A stretch of 32,000 bases of DNA, taken from positions 750,001 through 782,000 of the forward strand of contig NZ_CP036280.1 in assembly GCF_007748075.1 (NCBI RefSeq), in the 5' to 3' direction. Below, one piece after another: positions 5,311 through 19,101 of this stretch (positions within the stretch are counted from its first letter, which is position 1; every line of letters begins with the position of its first letter). This stretch comes from Mucisphaera calidilacus (lineage in GTDB: Bacteria; Planctomycetota; Phycisphaerae; Phycisphaerales; Phycisphaeraceae). The notes beneath the pieces were generated by a model. That model had not been told where the DNA came from, did no database searches, and saw nothing but the letters and a program-made list of their open reading frames with translations. A program made the position numbers and the translations under genes.

Positions 5311-5814
5311 TTACTCAGCCGGTTCCGGGTCCGTCTCCGGACGTTCGGGGGCCGCATCCCGGATCTTCTCAAGCAGATTGCCGGTCGTCGCCTTGATCGC
5401 ATCCTTGGCCTTCTCACAGGCCTCTTCCACCATCGCGCTCACCGGGTGACCCTCAAGCCTCTCCAGGCACCGGTCGCACACGGCGTTGATGTAGCCAATC
5501 GCACGCTTGCTGCGCTTCGTGATCGTCTCGATGCCACGCTTGCCCACGGCCAGCGCCGCACCCGGCTTCTCGTCCTCGACCAGACGCTCCATCAGCTTGA
5601 CGCTCTTGTGCGCCGTCGCACGGTTGCTGGCGATCACGTGCTTGGTGCCCGCGTTGATGTGAATGACACAGTGACGCGCCATCTCAACCGGGCCTCGCTC
5701 AACGATCGGACGCTGTGGCTTCTCAGGAGCCTCGGGACCGTCCTGCGCAACAACCGGTGCTGAGAACACAAACAAAGCGGCCAGCGCACACGACAACACG
5801 GATGACACTCTCAT
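5311..5814 (-). CDS. Secreted hypothetical protein
   Basis: N-terminal signal peptide MRVSSVLSCALAALFVFSAPVVAQ. ATG start at 5812-5814, with a terminator downstream. No recognisable domain. Confidence 0.6.
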   Translation of the reverse strand: MRVSSVLSCALAALFVFSAPVVAQDGPEAPEKPQRPIVERGPVEMARHCVIHINAGTKHVIASNRATAHKSVKLMERLVEDEKPGAALAVGKRGIETITKRSKRAIGYINAVCDRCLERLEGHPVSAMVEEACEKAKDAIKATTGNLLEKIRDAAPERPETDPEPAE

Positions 5815-5922
5815 CGGGGAACCTTCCTTTCTGAGTCCGGGTGGGGTTGCCTGATCGACCCCAAATCTGAATCAGCCGCCCCTTGCGGCCTTCTCAGACA
5901 ACTCAACGCCCGCCTGCTGAGC

Positions 5923-6387
5923 CTATTGCACCGGCACGCGATCTTTTTCGACCCCGGCTCGAAATCGCAGCTTCCCACGCTCCGGACCGCACGCCTTGCA
6001 GTAATAATCCCGGCCGCGCATCGGCCTGCGGTACCGGCTGTGACACACGCCGCATCCCGGGCAGACCGCTCGCCAGCGACCCTCAGGCATCTCGGCCTCA
6101 CCCCGAACACGCGGCGCTATCCCGAGCCGAAGACAGGCCGCTTTCCACGCTAGGCCGTGACCCGCCTTCGGACCCGCGATCGCGTGTGCAATCTCGTGCA
6201 GGATCGTCTCACGGACCTCCGACACCTCATGACGCAACACGAAGTGACGCGACAACTCGATCCGCCGATCCGTGAAATTGCAGATGCCCAGCGCACGCCT
6301 ACGGTGATTGAAACCAAACGACCACCCCACAAGACCCTGCTCCGACATCAGACGCAGGGCGAGATTCTCAGCCTCAACGAGATCCAT
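5923..6387 (-). CDS. SprT-like zinc metalloprotease with C-terminal Cys4 zinc ribbon
   Basis: HExxH motif in ILHEIAHAI. The C-terminal CPGCG...CKACG forms a zinc ribbon. The ORF extends to GTG 6402, but ATG at 6385-6387 (MDLVEAENL) is preferred because a terminator hairpin abuts 6409. Confidence 0.75.
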   Translation of the reverse strand: MDLVEAENLALRLMSEQGLVGWSFGFNHRRRALGICNFTDRRIELSRHFVLRHEVSEVRETILHEIAHAIAGPKAGHGLAWKAACLRLGIAPRVRGEAEMPEGRWRAVCPGCGVCHSRYRRPMRGRDYYCKACGPERGKLRFRAGVEKDRVPVQ

Positions 6388-6408
6388 CACCCGGTTATAC
6401 ACCCAATC

Positions 6409-6442
6409 AAAAACCCCGTTGACACCGACGGCACCAACGGGG
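6409..6442 (-). terminator. Rho-independent terminator downstream of the LysM gene
   Basis: The minus strand reads ccccgttg-gtgccgtcggtgt-caacgggg, followed by ttttt (complement of 6409-6413). Confidence 0.65.
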
Positions 6443-6591
6443 CGGAGGGGAGAAAGTCTGTCATTAGTTATCTCGGTGGGGGAACCCGCTTCACTTGAAA
6501 ACAGAGCCCGATATCTTGAATCGGCTAACCCGAAACCTCGGCGAGCTGATAAACCGCCCCCTGATCAATGTGAACGGAATTCAAACAGGCG

Positions 6592-7053
6592 TTAATCCGG
6601 GATGATCAAGACCGTGCCGATCGCCATCTTGTTCGGATCGATGCCCGGGTTCGCCTCCGCGATCTCCTGCCAGCGGCGAACCGTGCCGTACTGCTCCAGC
6701 GAGATCGACGACAGCGTGTCACCCTTCTTCACCTCATACGTCTTGATCGCCGGCAACTGCTCAGGCGTCGCACGCTCGTCCACAGGCTCGGAATCCTCCG
6801 CGTAACCCTCCGATGGCGGCGGCGGCGGGCCCGGCTCCGCAAACTCAGGCTCCGCAACCCTGTCGATCGGCTCCGGCGGCGAAGCGAACGTCTCGTCCGC
6901 CACAGGGCTCTCACGGTGATACGTCAGACTCGATGAGGAGGGGGCCGGAACCGGCTCAGGCATCTGCTCCGGCTCGTAACGACAACCCGCCACGAGCGCA
7001 GCACTAACAACCAGAGCGAACAGAAAACCAACGTCAAATCGAATGCTGGGCAT
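6592..7053 (-). CDS. LysM peptidoglycan-binding lipoprotein
   Basis: Lipobox-like ALVAGC after a hydrophobic leader, then a Pro/Glu-rich linker. The C-terminal LysM domain is YEVKKGDTLSSISLEQYGTVRRWQEIAEANPGIDPNKMAIGTVLIIP. Confidence 0.8.
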   Translation of the reverse strand: MPSIRFDVGFLFALVVSAALVAGCRYEPEQMPEPVPAPSSSSLTYHRESPVADETFASPPEPIDRVAEPEFAEPGPPPPPSEGYAEDSEPVDERATPEQLPAIKTYEVKKGDTLSSISLEQYGTVRRWQEIAEANPGIDPNKMAIGTVLIIPD

Positions 7054-8230: not shown

Positions 8231-9313
8231 ATGCGCACCGATGACCTCAACTTCGACCTCCCCGCCGAACGCATCGCTCAGCACCCCGCCGAGCCTCGCG
8301 ACACCGCGAAACTCATGCTCATCGACCGCGCCACCCGTCGCGTCGAACACCTCCGCGTCCGCGACCTCCCCAATCTCGGCATCCTCGGCTCATCAGACCT
8401 GATGGTCGTCAATGACACCCGCGTCCTGCCCGCCTCCTTCCACGGAATCCGGACCGACACCGGCGGCGCACTCCGCGGCCTCTTCCTCGAACAGACCGCC
8501 GACGGCCAATGGCTTCTCATGCTCGAAACCCGAGGCCACCTCAAACACGACGAGACCATCACCCTCCACGACACCCACGGCCAGCCAGCACTCACGCTCC
8601 GTCTGACCCAACACCTCGACGCCGGCAACTGGCTCGCACGCCCCGAAACCCACGCCGATCCCATCGACACCCTCGAACGCATCGGCACCATGCCCCTGCC
8701 TCCCTACATCCGCAAAGCACGCAAGCAGGCCGGACTCCCCGAGGTCGAGTCCGAAGACGCCCAACGCTACAACACCGTCTTCGCCGAGCAGGCCGGTTCC
8801 GCCGCAGCGCCCACCGCCGGCCTCCACCTTACACCCCAACTCCTCGAACAACTCTGCATCGCAGGCCTCTCCCTCGCCACCGTCACCCTCCACGTCGGTC
8901 TGGGAACCTTCGCACCCGTGCGCACCGAACTGCTCGAACAGCACGCCCTCCACAGCGAACGCATCGTCGTCCCGCCCGAAACCATCGCCGCGCTCCAGCG
9001 GACGCGCGAATCCAGCGGACGCATCCTCGCCGTCGGTACCACCTCCGTCCGCACCCTCGAATCCCTCCCCGACCCGCTCCCAGCCGACGGCTACACCGGC
9101 TCCACTGACCTCTACGTCCACCCAGGCCTCGACTTCAACTTCCGATTTACCGACCGACTCCTCACCAACTTCCACCTGCCCGGCTCCACACTCCTCGCCC
9201 TCGTCGCCTCCCTCCCCGGCGTCGGGATCGAACAACTCCTCGACTGGTACCGCACCGCCATCGACCACGACTACCGCTTCTACAGCTACGGCGACGCGAT
9301 GCTCCTCCTCTGA
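8231..9313 (+). CDS. queA: S-adenosylmethionine:tRNA ribosyltransferase-isomerase
   Basis: The N-terminus MRTDDLNFDLPAERIAQHPAEPRDTAKLMLIDR is typical of QueA, as are LPPYI, AAPTAGLHLT, HVGLGTF, AVGTTSVR and the length. ATG at 8231; the track start at 8222 is TTG. Confidence 0.9.
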   Translation: MRTDDLNFDLPAERIAQHPAEPRDTAKLMLIDRATRRVEHLRVRDLPNLGILGSSDLMVVNDTRVLPASFHGIRTDTGGALRGLFLEQTADGQWLLMLETRGHLKHDETITLHDTHGQPALTLRLTQHLDAGNWLARPETHADPIDTLERIGTMPLPPYIRKARKQAGLPEVESEDAQRYNTVFAEQAGSAAAPTAGLHLTPQLLEQLCIAGLSLATVTLHVGLGTFAPVRTELLEQHALHSERIVVPPETIAALQRTRESSGRILAVGTTSVRTLESLPDPLPADGYTGSTDLYVHPGLDFNFRFTDRLLTNFHLPGSTLLALVASLPGVGIEQLLDWYRTAIDHDYRFYSYGDAMLLL

Positions 9314-9335
9314 CCAGGAAACGTAGAATCGCCCC

Positions 9336-10346
9336 ATGCCCCTGGACCAGCCCGACGAACACCAGGCCTTTGGCGAGATGAGCATCGGCGATCATCTCGA
9401 AGAACTCCGCAAACGCATCCTCTACGCACTCATCGGCACCGGCGTCGCGGCCATCCTCACCTTCGCCTTCGGCTTCCAGCTCATCGCATGGATCGCCCGC
9501 CCGCTCCTCCAGGCACAGGAGGCCCTCGGCTACCCGCCCGCCGTCTACGCCTTCGACCCCACCGTCGGCTTCACATCCGTCTACCTCCGCGTCTCCCTCA
9601 TCGCCGCCGCCATCCTCGCCTCGCCCTGGATCCTCTACCAGCTCTGGCGATTCATCGCCGTCGGCCTCTACGCCCACGAGAAACGCGTCGTCCACATCCT
9701 CGCACCCTTCAGCGCCGTCATGACACTCCTGGGCGTCGCCTTCACCTACTACATCCTCCTCCCCATCTGCCTCGTCTTCTTCATCGGATGGGCCGGATAC
9801 TACCCCGAAGTCGAACCCGGCGACCGCGGACTCATGCTCAGCCTCATCTACGGCCGACCCGCCATCGAAACACCCGTCGAATCCGAACCCGACACCAGCG
9901 CCCTCCAACTCCCCGTCCTCCAAAACGACCCCGAAACCCTCTCCGAAGGCATGGTCTGGCTCGACGCACGCCTCGGCGCCCTCCGCGCCGTCATCGATGG
10001 GGAGGTCCACACCCTCATGGCACGCCAGCCTCGCATGCTCCAGCCCATGCCCGAACTCGGCCAGTTCATCGGCTTCGCCGCCTTCATGGGCCTGGGCATC
10101 GTCGCCGCCTTCCAACTCCCCGTCATCATGCTCGTCGTCGGATGGTCCGGCCTCATCGACCCCGCATGGGTCCGCGGCTTCCGACGCCACGCACTCCTCG
10201 CCGTCCTCGCCACCTCCGCCATCCTCACCCCCAGCGACCTGCTCAGCATGGTCGTCCTCGCACTGCCCCTCTACACCCTCTTCGAATTCGGGCTCCTCCT
10301 CATGGCATGGGTCTACCGCGACCCCTCATTCCCCGAAGACGCCTGA
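9336..10346 (+). CDS. tatC: Twin-arginine translocase subunit TatC (with extra loop insertion)
   Basis: MSIGDHLEELRKRILYALIG is the typical TatC N-terminus. Six hydrophobic segments are present, with a C-terminal ILTPSD motif. It is 336 aa, against about 250-260 for typical TatC. Confidence 0.85.
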   Translation: MPLDQPDEHQAFGEMSIGDHLEELRKRILYALIGTGVAAILTFAFGFQLIAWIARPLLQAQEALGYPPAVYAFDPTVGFTSVYLRVSLIAAAILASPWILYQLWRFIAVGLYAHEKRVVHILAPFSAVMTLLGVAFTYYILLPICLVFFIGWAGYYPEVEPGDRGLMLSLIYGRPAIETPVESEPDTSALQLPVLQNDPETLSEGMVWLDARLGALRAVIDGEVHTLMARQPRMLQPMPELGQFIGFAAFMGLGIVAAFQLPVIMLVVGWSGLIDPAWVRGFRRHALLAVLATSAILTPSDLLSMVVLALPLYTLFEFGLLLMAWVYRDPSFPEDA

Positions 10347-11107
10347 TCCCCCTCCGCATCTGCCTCAACTGGGGGGACGGCCAGCAAGTCGCCCGGATAG
10401 ACCGCCGCCTCGCAACGCTCGATCCCCACCGCATCCGCCACACGATAAGCCCCGATCGCCGTCCGCCGAAGCGACGCCAGATGCCCGCCCGTCCCCAGCG
10501 CCCGGCCGAGATCACGCGCCAGCGAGCGGATATACACACCCTTCCCGCAGTCAATCACCAGCCGCGCCACCGGCCACGCATACGCCTCCAGACGAATCCC
10601 GTCGACCCGCACCGGCCGCGTCGGCAAGTCGACAGCCTCGCCCGATCGTGCCAGCTCATACGCCCGCCTCCCCGCCACGTGAATCGCCGAATAGGCCGGC
10701 GGAGCCTGCTCGATCACCCCCACAAACCCCGGCAGAACATCCAGCACGTCCGCCTCGGCAGGGGGGTGGTCCACCGCCACCTCCGCCCGCTCCCCCTCCC
10801 GGTCATCCGTGGTCGTGAACGCCGACAGGTCCACCTCCGCCACGTACTGCTTGGGCTGGCCCATCAGCCGGTCCACCGCCCGCGTCGCCCGGCCCACGCA
10901 GCAGATCAGCAACCCCGTCGCCAGCGGGTCCAGCGTTCCCGCGTGCCCCGTCTTCACCCTCCCCGGCCCCTTGCCCCGAACCTTCGCACCCGCCGCCGAC
11001 AAACCACGACGCAGCACCCGCAAAACGTCCATCGAGCTGAGACGCAAGGGTTTATCGACGAGCAGCAGACCGTCATACACAGGAGCCGGATTTGGAGGGT
11101 GGTTCAT
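10313..11107 (-). CDS. truB: tRNA pseudouridine(55) synthase
   Basis: GLLLVDKP and GHAGTLDPLATGLLICCVGRATR include the catalytic Asp motif. ATG start at 11105-11107. The 3' end overlaps the tatC 3' end by 34 nt (convergent). Confidence 0.9.
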   Translation of the reverse strand: MNHPPNPAPVYDGLLLVDKPLRLSSMDVLRVLRRGLSAAGAKVRGKGPGRVKTGHAGTLDPLATGLLICCVGRATRAVDRLMGQPKQYVAEVDLSAFTTTDDREGERAEVAVDHPPAEADVLDVLPGFVGVIEQAPPAYSAIHVAGRRAYELARSGEAVDLPTRPVRVDGIRLEAYAWPVARLVIDCGKGVYIRSLARDLGRALGTGGHLASLRRTAIGAYRVADAVGIERCEAAVYPGDLLAVPPVEADAEGDQASSGNEGSR

Positions 11108-11148: not shown

Positions 11149-11237
<89 letters not shown>

Positions 11238-11250
11238 TTGCTCGAGAAAA

Positions 11251-11283
11251 GCGGCCTTCAGAGCTTCTGAGGGCCGTTTTTTT
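11251..11283 (+). terminator. Rho-independent terminator after tRNA-Ser
   Basis: gcggccttcaga-gc-ttctgagggccg forms a stem with one mismatch/wobble, followed by ttttttt. Confidence 0.7.
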
Positions 11284-11299
11284 GTGTTCTTCTGACGCG

Positions 11300-11334
11300 C
11301 AGCCCCACAACAGCCCCATTTACAGCCCCATCTA
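11300..11334 (+). repeat. Three tandem 11-12-nt units cagcccca(N3-4)
   Basis: The units are cagccccacaa, cagccccattta and cagccccatcta. They lie at the left edge of the low-GC islet. Confidence 0.7.
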
Positions 11335-12077
11335 CCCTCTCCGCAGGAGGCTTAACTTGAGTCTTTGACCACCAATCAGAATGTAGAGTTTCAGATTGAT
11401 TCCGCCCGTGCTTCTCTAAGCCCCGCAAATAGGCTTGGGTTTGTCTTGACCTGACTGCCTCACGTTGCCTGTCTAAAGAAACAGCGTGAGCCAGAGAAAG
11501 CAGTGCCAGGGTTCGCTTGGCCAGACGTGGCTCGTCACCAGTCGACCCTTTTTGTCATGTCGTAGATATTCTGCCGTGGGTTCAAATCTTACGTGTTTTC
11601 CTCGGCTATAAATTGCACGCCGTCTTCACTAGGGTCCTGCCTTCAGCCTGACGCGACGCAAACGTGCTCTGATCTTCTGAAAGTCGTCACTTCTTCATCG
11701 AATAGCCTTGCCAAACTAAGGCCGGATGATCGTCTAAAACGAGCATGAAGAATGGATCAGGATTCAGAGTGAGGCGCACCGTCACGAATTATTGAGCATT
11801 GCGGTCGAGCATGAACCTCCTGTATGGAGGCAACATCAATCTGCGGTATAATTCAAAGCGAAGCATGATGAACCGTCATGTACGTGCTCAAGAAGGTGTG
11901 CAGCATGTCGTTCGCATCAATGATGTATTTGAGGAATCTTCTGATGTCTCTTGCAAGCCCCAATACTCAACGCCTCTCGGCTGAATCAACCGCACATATC
12001 ACTGTTACTCTGTATTTCAGCAATCGACCAACAATGCCCGCCCACCTGATCGTCATGTATCTACAGAAGGCACAAGT

Positions 12078-13388
12078 TTGAAGAGGCAGACGCGCAGACG
12101 GCGGTTTCAATTCGACAGCACGGATTCGTCTCGTGTTAACCACTACGTGTTCCGCTATCCAGCGAAGTTCCATCCGCCGGTTGCACGAGCCCTTGTAAGG
12201 GAATTCAGTGCCTTAGGCGATACCGTACTTGATCCATTCTGCGGCAGTGGGACTCTATCGGTAGAAGCCTTGCTGGCGGGGCGAAATGCAGTCGCTTTAG
12301 ACGTTGATCCCGTTGCGGTTTTCGTCACGCAGATGAAGTGCAAGCGATGGCAAATCTGTCGTCTCACCAAATCTACCAACACCTTACTGTCGATGGCAGA
12401 TGAACTGGAGCGATCTTCGTCGGAGTATAGACGACGTAGATTCCAAGATTTACCGAGGTCGCGGTTTCGCGCCGCCCTGTCAGCCGAACGACTCTGGGTA
12501 CCAGATATTCCAAACATCGAGCATTGGTTTCGGAGATACGTACTTCTCGACCTTGCGCGACTGTTGAATGCCATCTCATCAGCACCCATTGGACCAACTG
12601 CACGGAGTTTCCTACATCTTTGCTTCGCAGCAACCATCCGCGCTTCCTCCAATGCTGATCCTGTGCCAGTATCCGGCCTAGAAGTAACATCGCATATGCT
12701 CGCGAAGGATGCAGACGGACGTACTATAAACCCATTTGCGATTTTTCGTCGTCATGTGACTGCTTCACTCAAAGGAATGACAGCCTTCTCAGATGCGTGC
12801 CCAAGCAATGTGGTTAGCCAGGTTGCACAGCGCGATGCGGCAACAACGGATCACTATCCATATCCCATGGCGGATGTAGCCATCACTTCGCCCCCATATA
12901 ATGGGGCAGTCGATTATTATCGGAGGCATACACTTGAAATGTACTGGCTAGGCTTCACAGAAACACGCGAACAGCGCCTAGGGCTCCTCGACAGATATAT
13001 TGGACGACCATCTGTGCCGATGAGGCATAAGTTTGTGACATCTCCTTCTTACACGCCACTGATACACCAGTGGGAGAGCACAATGCGATCACATTCAGAG
13101 GCAAGGGCAAATGCGTTTTTGCATTATTGCACTGCAATGCGGCGTGTGTTTGCGGGACTTTATGCCGCGATCAGGCCAGGAGGTCGAGCCATTTTTGTTG
13201 TTGGGCGAAGCAATTGGAACGGACGCTCGTTGCCGACCGACCGCCTAATGCATGAGCTCGCAGGGGATCAGTATGATCTTGAAGATGTAGCATGGTATCC
13301 AATCAAGAATCGTTACATGTCATACTCCCGTCATAATAATGCTAATATTAATCGTGAATACGTGCTTATATACCGGAGGATTTCGTGA
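12078..13388 (+). CDS. DNA amino-methyltransferase (N6-adenine or N4-cytosine), motif I before motif IV
   Basis: YPAKFHPPVARALV...GDTVLDPFCGSGTLSVEALLAGRNAVALDVDP covers the motif X/I region (aa 27-77). ITSPPYNGAVDYY is motif IV (aa 271-274, nt 12888-12899). The start is uncertain: TTG 12078 is preceded by gaagg, there is no in-frame ATG, and GTG about 12144 is an alternative. Confidence 0.75.
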   Translation: MKRQTRRRRFQFDSTDSSRVNHYVFRYPAKFHPPVARALVREFSALGDTVLDPFCGSGTLSVEALLAGRNAVALDVDPVAVFVTQMKCKRWQICRLTKSTNTLLSMADELERSSSEYRRRRFQDLPRSRFRAALSAERLWVPDIPNIEHWFRRYVLLDLARLLNAISSAPIGPTARSFLHLCFAATIRASSNADPVPVSGLEVTSHMLAKDADGRTINPFAIFRRHVTASLKGMTAFSDACPSNVVSQVAQRDAATTDHYPYPMADVAITSPPYNGAVDYYRRHTLEMYWLGFTETREQRLGLLDRYIGRPSVPMRHKFVTSPSYTPLIHQWESTMRSHSEARANAFLHYCTAMRRVFAGLYAAIRPGGRAIFVVGRSNWNGRSLPTDRLMHELAGDQYDLEDVAWYPIKNRYMSYSRHNNANINREYVLIYRRIS

Positions 13389-15922
13389 TGGCCAACTCTA
13401 CAACTCTAGTTTCTGATGGTATCACGGCACTCGCTGATCACCACAAAGTTCACAGTAGGTCTGTGTCACTTTCCCCTGCTCTCGTCGGCTTACTCTCGGA
13501 GCAGCTATATCGCTCTCCAGTAAAAGCACTAGAAGAACTCGTCGTTAACTCTTTCGATGCTGAAGCGAATAGTTGCAGGCTGTATGTACCACAGCCTACC
13601 GAGATGGTCTCGCAGAGTAAGTCTGCTGTAATCGCTGTCTGGGATGATGGCTTTGGGATGGATGTGGCGGGGCTAACCGAGCTCTGGGCTATCGGCGATA
13701 GTCGTAAACGCGACCCAGATTTTATCACCGAGAAGCAAATCAAACGCAAGCAAATCGGTAAGTTTGGTATCGGGAAACTCGCGACCTACGCCGTTTGTGA
13801 ACGAGTCACTTACCTATCGTCAACGGCAAGTGGGCTCTTTGCGGTCACGATTGACTACAACGCCTTCGCCAAAGCAAGTAAGGGCACAGTCCAAGATGTA
13901 CCTCTGTCTATAGTCAAAGTACCCACAATCTCGGACTCAGGATTTGAGTCTGCAATCAATGCGCTTACTGATAAGCTTGGTATAGACTCACAATCGCTCA
14001 ATGAGCCCGGCTGGACGCTTGTCCTCCTAGAAAAGCTACGTCGCAAGGCTCAAGACATTACTCAAGGACGACTTCGCTGGGTTCTGGGCACGGCAATGCC
14101 ATTACAGGCTGACTTCGCGCTCTATCTCAATCGTACAGAAATTCTCAGCAGCAAGGAAGAGTATGAGACAGCAATTAATTTTGCTATACACGATCTTCCA
14201 AAACAGCGGCTGAAATCACTTACTGAAGAAACGGGTGAAGCTTGGACTATCAAAGACTCCATACTCCTCTGTGAGACTCTTCCCAAGGGTGTCGGTGGCA
14301 CAGTTCGCGTCTACAAACGTCCACTGACTGGTAAGAGCGATGATATTATCCGCAGCCATGGTTTTTTTATTCGTGTGAATGGCCGCTTGATCAACGAAGA
14401 CGATCCCTTATTCGGGCTAGATCCGTTGTCGCACAAGACGTTTTACCGATTTCGCGCCGACCTCGATGTAAACGACTTGGATGCGGTACTCCTCTCTTCG
14501 CGAGAAGAGGTTGGAGCATCGGATCAAAAGCGTGTCTTGGATGCCGTTATGCGGTGTGTATTTAACGAGGCACGGACGCAGTTCGAAAATAGTGACGGCA
14601 AGCTTTTTGGGGAGAATGAACACGTCCGAGAGTCTGATCGGCTGTTTGTTGCCCCACATTTGGTCGAGAGACCACTTGCAGACGTCCTGACACCGAACGC
14701 ATCAGCAGCAGAGACGAGTGATGCTGGAGTTTCGTGGTTCTACTTAGATGCGGCAACAGACGAAGACCTCTCTGAGATCATTGGTCGGCTCTATTCTGGT
14801 GAGCGATCAAAGTATCGCTATGACTTTGAAACACGAGGACCCAATGATCGCCTTGTTCGCTTTGAACCGAAGACTAACCGCTTTGTCCTCAACGATTCAC
14901 ATGAGTTCATTCGGGCACACGCTGAAGATGCTGGTTCACTCCGAACCCTTAAGGATCTTGTAACCGCAGATATGCTCCTTGAAGTTTATATGCGTGAATC
15001 CGGAGTTCGGAGTGAGGTGATCGGAGAGATTTTAGAGAACCGAGATGCGTTGTTGCGAGCGTTAGCTCGTGATCACGGTTTTTCTCTTGCCAGCATCGCT
15101 GGCGGGCTGCGCGACGCTGCGGCCAATGAACGAGATCTTGAGGTATACCTTGTCCGAGCAGTCAGGGCTCTCGGATTCAACGCGCAGCATGTGTCCGGTG
15201 CAGAGGAACCAGATGGTGTTGCACGGTTCATCAGCTATCCAGAAGGTGAGCGAAAGTTCATCTTAGAGGCAAAATCATCGACGAAAGTTCCTTCACTTGG
15301 TGCGATTGACTTTGGTGGTTTGAGACAACACGCCAAGGACAACAAGTGCGAGCGATGTCTTTTAGTAGCGCCCGACTATCCAGGTGGCTCAAAACAGGAT
15401 GACGCACAGGCGGCAAAGCGTGCAGATGAGTTAAAAGTCTCATGCTGGACGGTCGAAAACCTCGCCAGAGTAGTAGAATCTGCAGAACGTCGCCACATCA
15501 ACGCCAGAGACATCTACAAGATAGTCGATACTGCTTTCTCTCCAGATTCAGTCTGCGCTGCAGTTGAAGATCTACTCTCTGATCCTGGGGGAGACCTGTC
15601 CAGCCTCTACTCTGCAATTATTACAGTACTTCGTGGGCTAGAAGGGAAACTTCCCGATAGCACGCGGACAGTCAGCCAGATCGCAGGGAAGGTTGTCGAC
15701 ATCAAAGGCTTCGAAGGTGTCAATGAGGACAAGATACGCCACGCTATTGCGCAGATGGCCGGAGCATCGCGTGGAGCACTTCATCTCTCTGACGAAGATG
15801 CAGTCATCAACTCCACTTCTTTGAATGAGCTCGAAAATCGCTTGTCTTCCCATTTGACTGAAGGAGGAAACGGCCGATCTGAAGGACTATTTATGGAAAG
15901 TAATGGCACCGATAAGGGCTGA
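13388..15922 (+). CDS. GHKL (MutL/MORC/Hsp90-like) ATPase fused to a PD-(D/E)xK restriction-endonuclease-like domain
   Basis: Residues are numbered from GTG 13385. The N-box is E50-ELVVNSFDAEAN, G1 is D87-DGFGM and G2 is G125-KFGIGK. The C-terminal region is DLEVYLVRAVRALGF...EEPD610G...FILE628AK630S...CLLVAPDY. ATG 13388 overlaps the methyltransferase stop (TGATG). Confidence 0.75.
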   Translation: MANSTTLVSDGITALADHHKVHSRSVSLSPALVGLLSEQLYRSPVKALEELVVNSFDAEANSCRLYVPQPTEMVSQSKSAVIAVWDDGFGMDVAGLTELWAIGDSRKRDPDFITEKQIKRKQIGKFGIGKLATYAVCERVTYLSSTASGLFAVTIDYNAFAKASKGTVQDVPLSIVKVPTISDSGFESAINALTDKLGIDSQSLNEPGWTLVLLEKLRRKAQDITQGRLRWVLGTAMPLQADFALYLNRTEILSSKEEYETAINFAIHDLPKQRLKSLTEETGEAWTIKDSILLCETLPKGVGGTVRVYKRPLTGKSDDIIRSHGFFIRVNGRLINEDDPLFGLDPLSHKTFYRFRADLDVNDLDAVLLSSREEVGASDQKRVLDAVMRCVFNEARTQFENSDGKLFGENEHVRESDRLFVAPHLVERPLADVLTPNASAAETSDAGVSWFYLDAATDEDLSEIIGRLYSGERSKYRYDFETRGPNDRLVRFEPKTNRFVLNDSHEFIRAHAEDAGSLRTLKDLVTADMLLEVYMRESGVRSEVIGEILENRDALLRALARDHGFSLASIAGGLRDAAANERDLEVYLVRAVRALGFNAQHVSGAEEPDGVARFISYPEGERKFILEAKSSTKVPSLGAIDFGGLRQHAKDNKCERCLLVAPDYPGGSKQDDAQAAKRADELKVSCWTVENLARVVESAERRHINARDIYKIVDTAFSPDSVCAAVEDLLSDPGGDLSSLYSAIITVLRGLEGKLPDSTRTVSQIAGKVVDIKGFEGVNEDKIRHAIAQMAGASRGALHLSDEDAVINSTSLNELENRLSSHLTEGGNGRSEGLFMESNGTDKG

Positions 15923-16007
15923 GGCCAGATAATCATGTGGCTCCTTAGCAATCCAGATCACCCCCACACTCCCCGGCAACCACCCGCCGCGTCACCTAAC
16001 ATCCGGC

Positions 16008-18021: not shown

Positions 18022-19101
18022 ATGGCAACCGCATCAGACGGCATGAACTACGCACCCGTCGGCAAACCCCAGCCTGTCGTCAAACCCGGCGAATTCGCCT
18101 TCGCCGTCGCCGCCATGGACCACGGCCACATCCACGGGCAGACCAACGGCCTGCTCGGCGCCGGCGGGACTCTCAAGTACGTCTACGACAAACACGACAC
18201 CGAACAGGCACGCGCCTTCGCTGAACAGAACAACGCCACCCACGCCACCAGCCTCGACCAGATCCTCGACGACCCCGATATCAAACTCGTCGCCGCCGCC
18301 GCCATCCCCTCCGAGCGTGCCGCCCTCGGTATCCGCTGCATGGAGGCCGGCAAGCACTACTTCACCGACAAGACCCCGCTCACCACACTTGATCAACTCG
18401 AACAGGTCCGCGACGCCGTCCAGCGAACCGGCCGCAAGTACATGGTCTACTACTCCGAGCGCCTCCACGTCGAGTGCGCCATGCACGCCACGAAACTCGT
18501 ACAGCAGGGCGCGATCGGCCGCGTCATCCACGTCACCGGCTTCGGCCCCCACCGACTCGGCCCGCCCGAGGGACGACCCGACTGGTTCTACCGCAAGGCC
18601 CAGTACGGCGGGATCCTCTGCGACATCGGCAGCCACCAGATCGAGCAGTTCCTCACCTACGCCGGCTGCAGCGACGCCACCGTCCAGGCCGCCCGCGTCG
18701 CCAACTACAACCACCCCGACTACCCCGAACTCGAAGACTTCGGCGACTGCACACTCGTCGGCGACAACGGCGCGACGATGTATTTCCGCGTCGACTGGTT
18801 TACGCCCGACGGGCTAGGAACCTGGGGCGATGGCCGGACGTTTATCATCGGCACCGACGGCTACATCGAGATGCGCAAGTATTGCGAGGTCGCGTCCGGG
18901 CAGGATCTGGGCGACGTGCTCATTCTCGTCAACGGCGAGAACGAGCAACGCATGGAACTCAAGGATAAGGTTGGGTTTAGCTTCTTCGGCGACCTCATCC
19001 TCGACTGCCTGAACAACACCGAGAACGCCATGACTCAGGCCCACGCGCTCAAGGCTGCTGAGCTCTGCGTCCGCGCCCAGCAACAGGCGGTGCGGGTCTG
19101 A
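18022..19101 (+). CDS. Gfo/Idh/MocA-family oxidoreductase
   Basis: KLVAAAAIPSERAALGIRCMEAGKHYFTDKT matches the family's xxP..H.....al.aGKHv..EKP region. The size is about 360 aa. ATG start at 18022. Confidence 0.7.
   Translation: MATASDGMNYAPVGKPQPVVKPGEFAFAVAAMDHGHIHGQTNGLLGAGGTLKYVYDKHDTEQARAFAEQNNATHATSLDQILDDPDIKLVAAAAIPSERAALGIRCMEAGKHYFTDKTPLTTLDQLEQVRDAVQRTGRKYMVYYSERLHVECAMHATKLVQQGAIGRVIHVTGFGPHRLGPPEGRPDWFYRKAQYGGILCDIGSHQIEQFLTYAGCSDATVQAARVANYNHPDYPELEDFGDCTLVGDNGATMYFRVDWFTPDGLGTWGDGRTFIIGTDGYIEMRKYCEVASGQDLGDVLILVNGENEQRMELKDKVGFSFFGDLILDCLNNTENAMTQAHALKAAELCVRAQQQAVRV

Follow-up and report, generated by a model that had tools for sequence, protein, structure and literature searches.

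What do two overlapping genes encode that lie together in a low-GC islet beside a tRNA-Ser gene of Mucisphaera calidilacus (Planctomycetota)? We analysed a stretch of 32,000 nt from this organism (NZ_CP036280.1 positions 750,001–782,000, assembly GCF_007748075.1), hereafter the window; positions are counted within it, and all of its stranded features named below lie on the forward strand. The first open reading frame, ORF1 (12078–13388; 436 amino acids (aa), TTG start), encodes a methyltransferase that would serve as the modification subunit, and the second, ORF2 (13388–15922; 844 aa from its ATG), encodes a GHKL ATPase–nuclease fusion and is the putative restriction subunit. We propose that ORF1 and ORF2 were acquired horizontally and together make up a self-contained, Type II-like restriction-modification system of two genes with an ATP gate, a combined statement to which, read loosely, we give a probability of roughly 0.7. 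That the pair is a restriction-modification system at all we consider highly probable; that ATP gates cleavage by ORF2 is inferred at about even odds.

Gene linkage and the methyltransferase partner

Relatives of ORF2 were located in genomes of other species, 80 of their loci were fetched and all flanking ORFs were clustered. A DNA methyltransferase was the only recurrent neighbour, occurring at ~71 of the 80 loci, and no third conserved gene emerged from the clustering. Preferential linkage to methyltransferases, on which a prior reading of the locus made from the letters alone (the sequence-only reading) had staked its proposal, was thus borne out. At 55 loci the partner was of the ORF1 type, and at 13 it was a circularly permuted N6_N4 methyltransferase of the beta class (~290 aa), with single cases of another N6_N4 methyltransferase, of an ORF1-like match 3.7 kb away and, in Micromonospora, of a C5 methyltransferase followed by Vsr. 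At this last locus (L083, Micromonospora sp. CA-249363, 8985–11074) the GHKL-nuclease gene precedes the C5 cytosine methyltransferase and Vsr endonuclease genes, making a third partner type, and at another (L062) methyltransferase genes stand on both sides of the GHKL-nuclease gene (5645–6931 and 9562–10809).

Gene order is equally fluid. Where a methyltransferase of the N6_N4 type was adjacent (67 loci), its gene came first at 28 and second at 30, and the genes were convergent at eight and divergent at one. The pair abuts exactly in Burkholderia pseudomallei, where it is flanked by an integrase and a resolvase. Kept linkage combined with swapped partners and shuffled order is an established signature of Type II restriction-modification. 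Because linkage to ORF2 relatives is kept across three unrelated methyltransferase types and in every gene order, we read ORF1 and ORF2 as such a system, and gene linkage is the decisive evidence for restriction-modification.

The same survey bears on a different proposal, in which ORF2 would be a methylation-independent, Shedu-like defence nuclease that stands alone, its GHKL domain sensing infection and the methyltransferase being unrelated or an orphan. VcSduA, the only experimentally tested protein that joins GHKL and PD-(D/E)xK domains, does work alone (PMC12137116), and ~9 of the 80 loci have no methyltransferase nearby. Linkage at the great majority of loci to three methyltransferase types that replace one another speaks against this proposal, however, as do the shared stop and start of ORF1 and ORF2 and the abutting genes of Burkholderia. 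Moreover, DUF4263 was found neither in ORF2 (E ≤ 1) nor in the C-terminal domains of 23 family members (E ≤ 10), and PADLOC returned no Shedu match. We consider a stand-alone nuclease very unlikely.

By its motifs and profile matches, ORF1 is an S-adenosylmethionine (SAM)-dependent, Type II-like DNA amino-methyltransferase. It matches Pfam N6_N4_Mtase (E = 4e-17, 63 bits against a cut-off of 26.7), aligns over its whole length with the REBASE-derived Type II models of PADLOC (MTase_II, 7.6e-30) and matches PHROG 18146, a phage DNA methyltransferase family, at 2.9e-41; among PDB structures, 2zie, a putative modification methylase, and M.RsrI come nearest. Motif I, the SAM-binding DPFCGSGT (12231–12254), comes first and is followed after ~220 residues by the catalytic motif IV in its serine form, SPPY (12888–12899). 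Both motifs, and the amino-methyltransferase assignment itself, had been put forward in the sequence-only reading, and both translate at these positions.

The same motifs recur among the partners. DPFCGSGT is also kept in partner methyltransferases at other loci. Of the 68 amino-methyltransferase ORFs matched as partners at the 67 loci, 65 have SPPY, in both permutation classes, those with motif I first (the ORF1 type, 390–490 aa) and those with motif I last (the beta class, ~290 aa). SPPY is typical of N4-cytosine methyltransferases, a known bias. The prevalence of SPPY hints that modification chemistry is shared across the family, with N4-methylcytosine (m4C) as its probable product; taken with the C5 partner, it suggests targets that contain cytosine and methylation at N4 of that base.

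The ATPase–nuclease fusion

ORF2 is 100% identical to the 844-aa M. calidilacus protein P0001, named ‘ATP-binding protein’. Its residues are numbered here from the ATG; an alternative in-frame GTG at 13385 would give 845 aa, and the sequence-only reading counted from it, so its residue numbers exceed ours by one. A full-length AlphaFold2 model built with 89 relatives has a mean predicted local distance difference test score (pLDDT) of 85.5 and a predicted template modelling score of 0.70, and a separate model of residues 556–844 has a pLDDT of 83.5.

Sequence and model agree that the N-terminal half is a MORC/Hsp90-like GHKL ATPase with its transducer. The GHKL (Bergerat-fold) domain, delimited by HATPase_c_3 and by invariant motifs, spans residues 26–208 (13463–14011) and matches that Pfam family at E = 3.6e-18 (66 bits; cut-off 25). 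Its motifs are E50-x3-N54-x2-D57, within ELVVNSFD (13535–13558), D86-D-G-F-G-M and G124-K-F-G-I-G-K, so that ORF2 carries the ExxxNxxD, DxGxG and GxxGxG signatures of the GHKL superfamily on a fold like that of MORC2, TRAP1 and Hsp90. Foldseek superposes the N-terminal ~400 residues (E 1e-11 to 1e-9) on MORC2, MORC3 and TRAP1/Hsp90, in each case on the ATPase module, the alignments to MORC2 and MORC3 extending over 420–500 columns. The full Bergerat-fold set claimed by the sequence-only reading is therefore upheld by profile, structure and conservation. A family profile searched against PDB matches Hsp90 and MORC2 at ~1e-7, and when the ORF2 sequence was searched against PDB, matches (Hsp90, MORC2) were confined to the GHKL part.

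A transducer-like (S5-like) middle domain follows at residues 209–375 (14012–14512), placed by Foldseek, by the NCBIfam BbrUII/HgiDII model and by conservation. The MORC S5 motif, GhXhhpXXRhl, was defined in earlier comparative work (PMC2292703); the ORF2 segment G325-F-F-I-R-V-N-G-R333-L-I matches it at 9 of 11 positions, and G325 and R333 are invariant in the family. K316, also invariant, sits in a flexible GKSDD loop and is the candidate transducer sensor lysine. In the model, a linker then joins ATPase to nuclease (14513–15127) and comprises a long helix (379–412), a small beta domain (476–502) and a helical bundle (515–579).

The C-terminal model and Foldseek place a predicted PD-(D/E)xK nuclease domain at residues 581–700 (15128–15487), with E585, P608-D609 and E627-A-K629 as its candidate catalytic residues; in the translation these last appear as PDG...LEAK (15209–15274). 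FokI is the best structural match (Foldseek E 4e-6, 175 columns, root-mean-square deviation 3.8 Å), and HindIII and EcoT38I rank after it (E range 4e-6 to 7e-3). Pfam matches to the C-terminal domains of 23 members are weak and repeated, falling to NA-iREase1 in 14, FokI_cleav_dom in six and Mrr_cat in one; the RE_HindIII profile likewise matches the family weakly. The PD...ExK nuclease that had been read from the letters is in this way supported by a FokI/HindIII-like model, by conserved D609, E627 and K629 and by weak profile matches. Beyond it, Foldseek places a helical region and a winged-helix-like domain at residues 701–822 (15488–15853), the last ~100 residues of ORF2 resembling the winged-helix domains of Cdt1 and ORC (probability 0.94–0.99, E weak at ~0.2). 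This tail is a candidate DNA-binding or specificity element. By sequence, a profile of the C-terminal part searched against PDB returned noise only (designed helical proteins, E > 0.2).

Conservation was assessed in 76 relatives from many phyla, including a clade at 30–34% identity and two archaeal metagenome-assembled genomes. Invariant or nearly so are E50, N54, D57, D86, G88, G124, G127, G129 and K316 in the ATPase half and E585, P608-D609, E/D627 and K629 in the nuclease; seven relatives have aspartate at position 627, as in the DxK of FokI. Across the family, conservation is highest in the two catalytic cores; the linker between them varies more, and the most variable parts include an insert at residues 161–200 and the winged-helix region. 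Because the cores are so conserved and their residues are kept, both enzymatic activities are under selection. The pair and its relatives offer methyltransferase motifs, an adjacent gene with an intact endonuclease fold and conserved linkage with swapping, which are among the features by which Type II restriction-modification is recognized.

The main rival within restriction-modification concerns the ATPase. The GHKL domain might be a dimerization or DNA-binding scaffold, or a timer that holds back the nuclease until the system is established in a new host, with no ATP-driven gate. We found no report that cleavage by R.HgiDII, a GHKL-containing restriction enzyme compared below, needs ATP. Because no conserved controller protein or helix-turn-helix gene accompanies the pair, restriction could plausibly be delayed in another way. 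Against this, the catalytic glutamate E50, N54, K316 and the glycine motifs do not vary even among deeply diverged relatives, which speaks for selection acting on the binding and hydrolysis of ATP, and in VcSduA the substitution E27A abolishes defence (PMC12137116). We regard a scaffold or timer as unlikely.

Spread of the family and origin of the islet

In a scan of ~185,000 species genomes, one per species, ORF2 relatives were found in 365. The family comprises >1,000 proteins from many bacterial phyla and some archaea, and its members are scattered sporadically across phyla at a near-uniform 42–50% identity, a pattern like that of horizontal gene transfer. Only three weak matches occurred in a plasmid collection, all to the GHKL part, giving no sign of plasmid carriage. 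The module of nuclease and winged helix forms 539 clusters at 50% identity and is essentially restricted to this family, in which full-length matches are ~820–890 aa long and carry the module at the same position. Three proteins of 550–650 aa (P0237, P0238 and P0245) have the module and no Pfam GHKL match; either their gene calls are cut short at the N terminus or there is a second architecture, one without the ATPase. At locus L057 (7001–10316) the ORF2 match spans ~3.3 kb as against 2.5 kb and scores lower (E 2e-99), which suggests that this copy carries an insertion or disruption.

Public names do not reflect this architecture. P0001, P0018, P0021 and P0086 are called ‘ATP-binding protein’ or ‘HSP90 family protein’, with nuclease half and restriction-modification context unannotated, and no full-length model of the family was found in Pfam, NCBIfam or PADLOC. 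Because annotation is generic and a full-length model is lacking, defence-finding pipelines likely miss ORF2 and report only an orphan methyltransferase at such loci.

Distribution also weighs on the idea that the pair nicks or repairs DNA under the direction of methylation, in the manner of MutL–MutH or Vsr, the GHKL-nuclease reading the methylation state set by ORF1 so as to process mismatches or hemimethylated DNA and not to destroy foreign DNA. In restriction-modification systems, C5 methyltransferases are usually accompanied by Vsr. The relative that adjoins a C5 methyltransferase and Vsr has been counted for the repair idea, and its neighbour fits restriction-modification on that ground. 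Also in favour of repair, Iyer et al. pointed to the logic of MutL/MutH, in which GHKL is united with a restriction-endonuclease fold (PMC2292703). Against it stands the sporadic spread across bacterial phyla and archaea at near-uniform identity; ORF1 and ORF2 moreover lie in a foreign islet, mobile-element genes flank the Burkholderia copy, and no mismatch-recognition partner is conserved nearby among the clustered loci. A repair role is, in our view, highly improbable.

The islet itself (11290–15930, ~4.6 kb) has a GC content of ~0.50 against 0.62–0.70 outside it. GC content at third codon positions (GC3) is 0.48 in ORF1 and 0.47 in ORF2 (0.47–0.49 for the islet), as against 0.80–0.87 in three flanking genes, and on this compositional evidence we take the islet to be horizontally acquired DNA. 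Its left border is a tRNA-Ser gene with anticodon GGA (11149–11237; ARAGORN, and Rfam tRNA at 56.9 bits), directly followed by a terminator-like hairpin with an 18-pair stem and TTTTTTT (11245–11283). ORF1 and ORF2 are the sole credible genes of the islet, the remaining ORFs being short, overlapping or antisense to the pair, or of 61–68 aa within the 840-bp gap between tRNA-Ser and ORF1 (11238–12077). Coordinates and GC3 here agree with the sequence-only reading, which had described two co-directional ORFs overlapping at TGATG (13386–13390) as the only genes of an AT-richer islet beside tRNA-Ser.

The TGA of ORF1 (13386–13388) shares a base with the ATG of ORF2 (13388–13390), and a GGAGG ribosome-binding site (13375–13379) lies inside the 3′ end of ORF1, 8 nt upstream of that ATG. 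This site and the TGATG overlap, read together as one element (13375–13390), suggest translational coupling; the pair is probably transcribed as one unit and its translation coupled, with the methyltransferase gene in first place.

The 840-bp gap has a GC content of 0.50, foreign in composition like the rest of the islet. It showed no protein similarity in a local blastx against proteins encoded by the flanking genes of the retrieved loci and no Rfam match; across the whole window, Rfam found two tRNAs and nothing else. The pattern GGGTTCRAATC occurs twice in the window against 0.04 expected, once in tRNA-Ser and once in a hairpin at 11575–11593 (CGTGGGTTCAAATCTTACG) that resembles the T-arm of a tRNA and carries its consensus (GGGTTCAAATC). 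Likeness to tRNA-Ser is limited to the T-arm, and no tRNA was called there. The hairpin may be what remains of an attachment site, derived from a tRNA, of an integrative element that has since decayed. No integrase was found in the islet, and a search for flanking direct (att-type) repeats gave nothing convincing.

Such traces raise the question of whether the pair is itself a decaying remnant, intact by chance and unexpressed or inactive in its host. Consistent with decay are the lack of an integrase or att repeats in the islet, the 840 bp of apparently non-coding foreign DNA and the single promoter-like site detected, which is weak. Both reading frames are nonetheless full length, all catalytic residues are intact and the lengths equal those of relatives; the pair is probably functional, and we hold the remnant idea to be the least probable of those considered. 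In view of gene linkage, conservation and mobile context together, the stand-alone, repair and remnant explanations fit the data poorly.

Elsewhere in the window, GC skew flips from about −0.27 to +0.25 at ~18500–19000, with a cumulative minimum at ~18.5 kb. Genes may change their orientation there, or the flip may be a landmark of replication.

Proposed mechanism and known systems

In the system that we propose, ORF1 would methylate an exocyclic amino group within a specific short DNA sequence and so protect the host chromosome, and ORF2, as the restriction enzyme, would bind target DNA when it is unmethylated. By analogy with MORC, MutL and Hsp90, ORF2 would act as a homodimer whose two N-terminal GHKL domains close on ATP binding. 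FokI must dimerize to cut both strands; in ORF2, closure of the GHKL domains would bring the two cleavage domains together on DNA, and ATP hydrolysis would reopen the clamp for turnover.

Several points weigh against this proposal. Methyltransferases are missing at ~9 of the 80 loci, four of these being truncated contigs. N4 of cytosine, as the putative target of ORF1, is read from SPPY, and the joining of cleavage domains by GHKL closure is a conjecture. Restriction-enzyme models of PADLOC and NCBIfam match the ATPase half only, far under their cut-offs (31.8 bits; 59 against 550). We found no literature data on a role for ATP in R.HgiDII cleavage and no experimental work on any member of the ORF2 family; a literature search on GHKL-containing restriction enzymes and on HATPase_c_3 in restriction found no experiments beyond the 2008 analyses and the Shedu papers.

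A bolder version of the proposal, which we advance tentatively and think somewhat less likely than its negation, is that the ORF2 family is a true ATP-dependent Type II restriction enzyme, a MORC-like DNA-entrapping clamp in which dimerization of the N termini, driven by ATP, assembles a FokI-type nuclease dimer only on unmethylated DNA. If so, the pair would provide a simple two-gene bacterial model of a MORC-type ATPase that couples DNA-methylation status to action on DNA, and would be a new mechanistic subtype of restriction enzyme. The role of a GHKL ATPase in a restriction enzyme is a question raised in 2008, and an answer from ORF2 would inform the mechanisms of GHKL-Shedu nucleases and MORC ATPases. 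Practical yields could include new restriction specificities and an explanation for barriers to the transformation of Burkholderia and of actinomycetes, in both of which relatives occur.

How does ORF2 compare with systems already described? The sequence-only reading had not recognized its fused architecture in any named, experimentally characterized system, a statement that needs correction in view of R.HgiDII and the R.VeiORF1182P subfamily (PMC2441816), paraMORC3 (PMC2292703) and VcSduA (PMC12137116). A GHKL domain stands at the N terminus of R.HgiDII (Orlowski and Bujnicki 2008, PMC2441816). R.HgiDII and R.BbrUII are real restriction enzymes, Type IIP isoschizomers of SalI, and HgiDII/BbrUII enzymes resemble ORF2 in having N-terminal GHKL and middle domains and a gene next to that of their methyltransferase. 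Residues 39–402 of ORF2 align with positions 15–359 of the 659 in the model of this family, NCBIfam NF050001 (E = 2.8e-16, 59.2 bits). Membership was rejected because this score falls short of the cut-off of 550 and only the ATPase half is aligned. The C-terminal half of HgiDII, whose fold is unassigned, is unlike the FokI-like PD-(D/E)xK domain and winged helix of ORF2, and its partner is a C5 methyltransferase, whereas that of ORF2 is an SPPY amino-methyltransferase.

Four further REBASE subfamilies contain GHKL domains, and one of them, that of R.VeiORF1182P (19 members in 2008), adds a C-terminal PD-(D/E)XK domain (PMC2441816). This putative Type II subfamily has the same architecture as ORF2, N-terminal GHKL and C-terminal PD-(D/E)XK, in a comparison made by description only; when P0018, the relative from Burkholderia, served as the seed of a database search, none of the 120 best matches was a Verminephrobacter protein.

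Two other candidates were tried and rejected on score, MzaB, the ATPase of the MZA system (22 bits against a cut-off of 850), and MutL proper (14.7 against 180). A further parallel in a single polypeptide is with paraMORC3, which Iyer, Abhiman and Aravind (2008, PMC2292703; a paper cited by the sequence-only reading) described as GHKL and S5 joined to a restriction-endonuclease fold that carries E-D-ExK, and to which VcSduA has been equated (Adams et al. 2025, PMC12137116). Like ORF2, paraMORC3/VcSduA (Shedu type I-D) combines GHKL, a middle clamp domain and PD-(D/E)xK. VcSduA joins GHKL to the DUF4263 Shedu nuclease, and its E27 and K557 are both required for phage defence, which the E27A change abolishes (Adams et al. 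2025, PMC12137116); K557 is the nuclease lysine, against K629 in the 844 aa of ORF2. ORF2 differs in that VcSduA has a DUF4263 nuclease and works by itself, whereas the relatives of ORF2 show methyltransferase linkage; on the DUF4263 and PADLOC results given above, ORF2 was rejected as a Shedu protein.

FokI (Type IIS), HindIII and EcoT38I are the best structural matches of the nuclease domain, at just 9–16% identity; the FokI site reads PD...DxK, and some ORF2 relatives likewise have aspartate at 627, whereas FokI has no ATPase and has recognition domains of its own. Eukaryotic MORC2 and MORC3, with MutL and Hsp90, are the top structural matches of the N-terminal half and belong to the same Pfam family, HATPase_c_3; ORF2 differs from MORC in having no chromatin-reader domains, in its fused nuclease and at 2 of the 11 MORC signature positions. 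The architecture was thus already predicted in 2008, with partial experimental precedent, and is not a new category of system; ORF2 is a member of a large, uncharacterized and under-annotated family of MORC-like ATPase–nuclease fusions.

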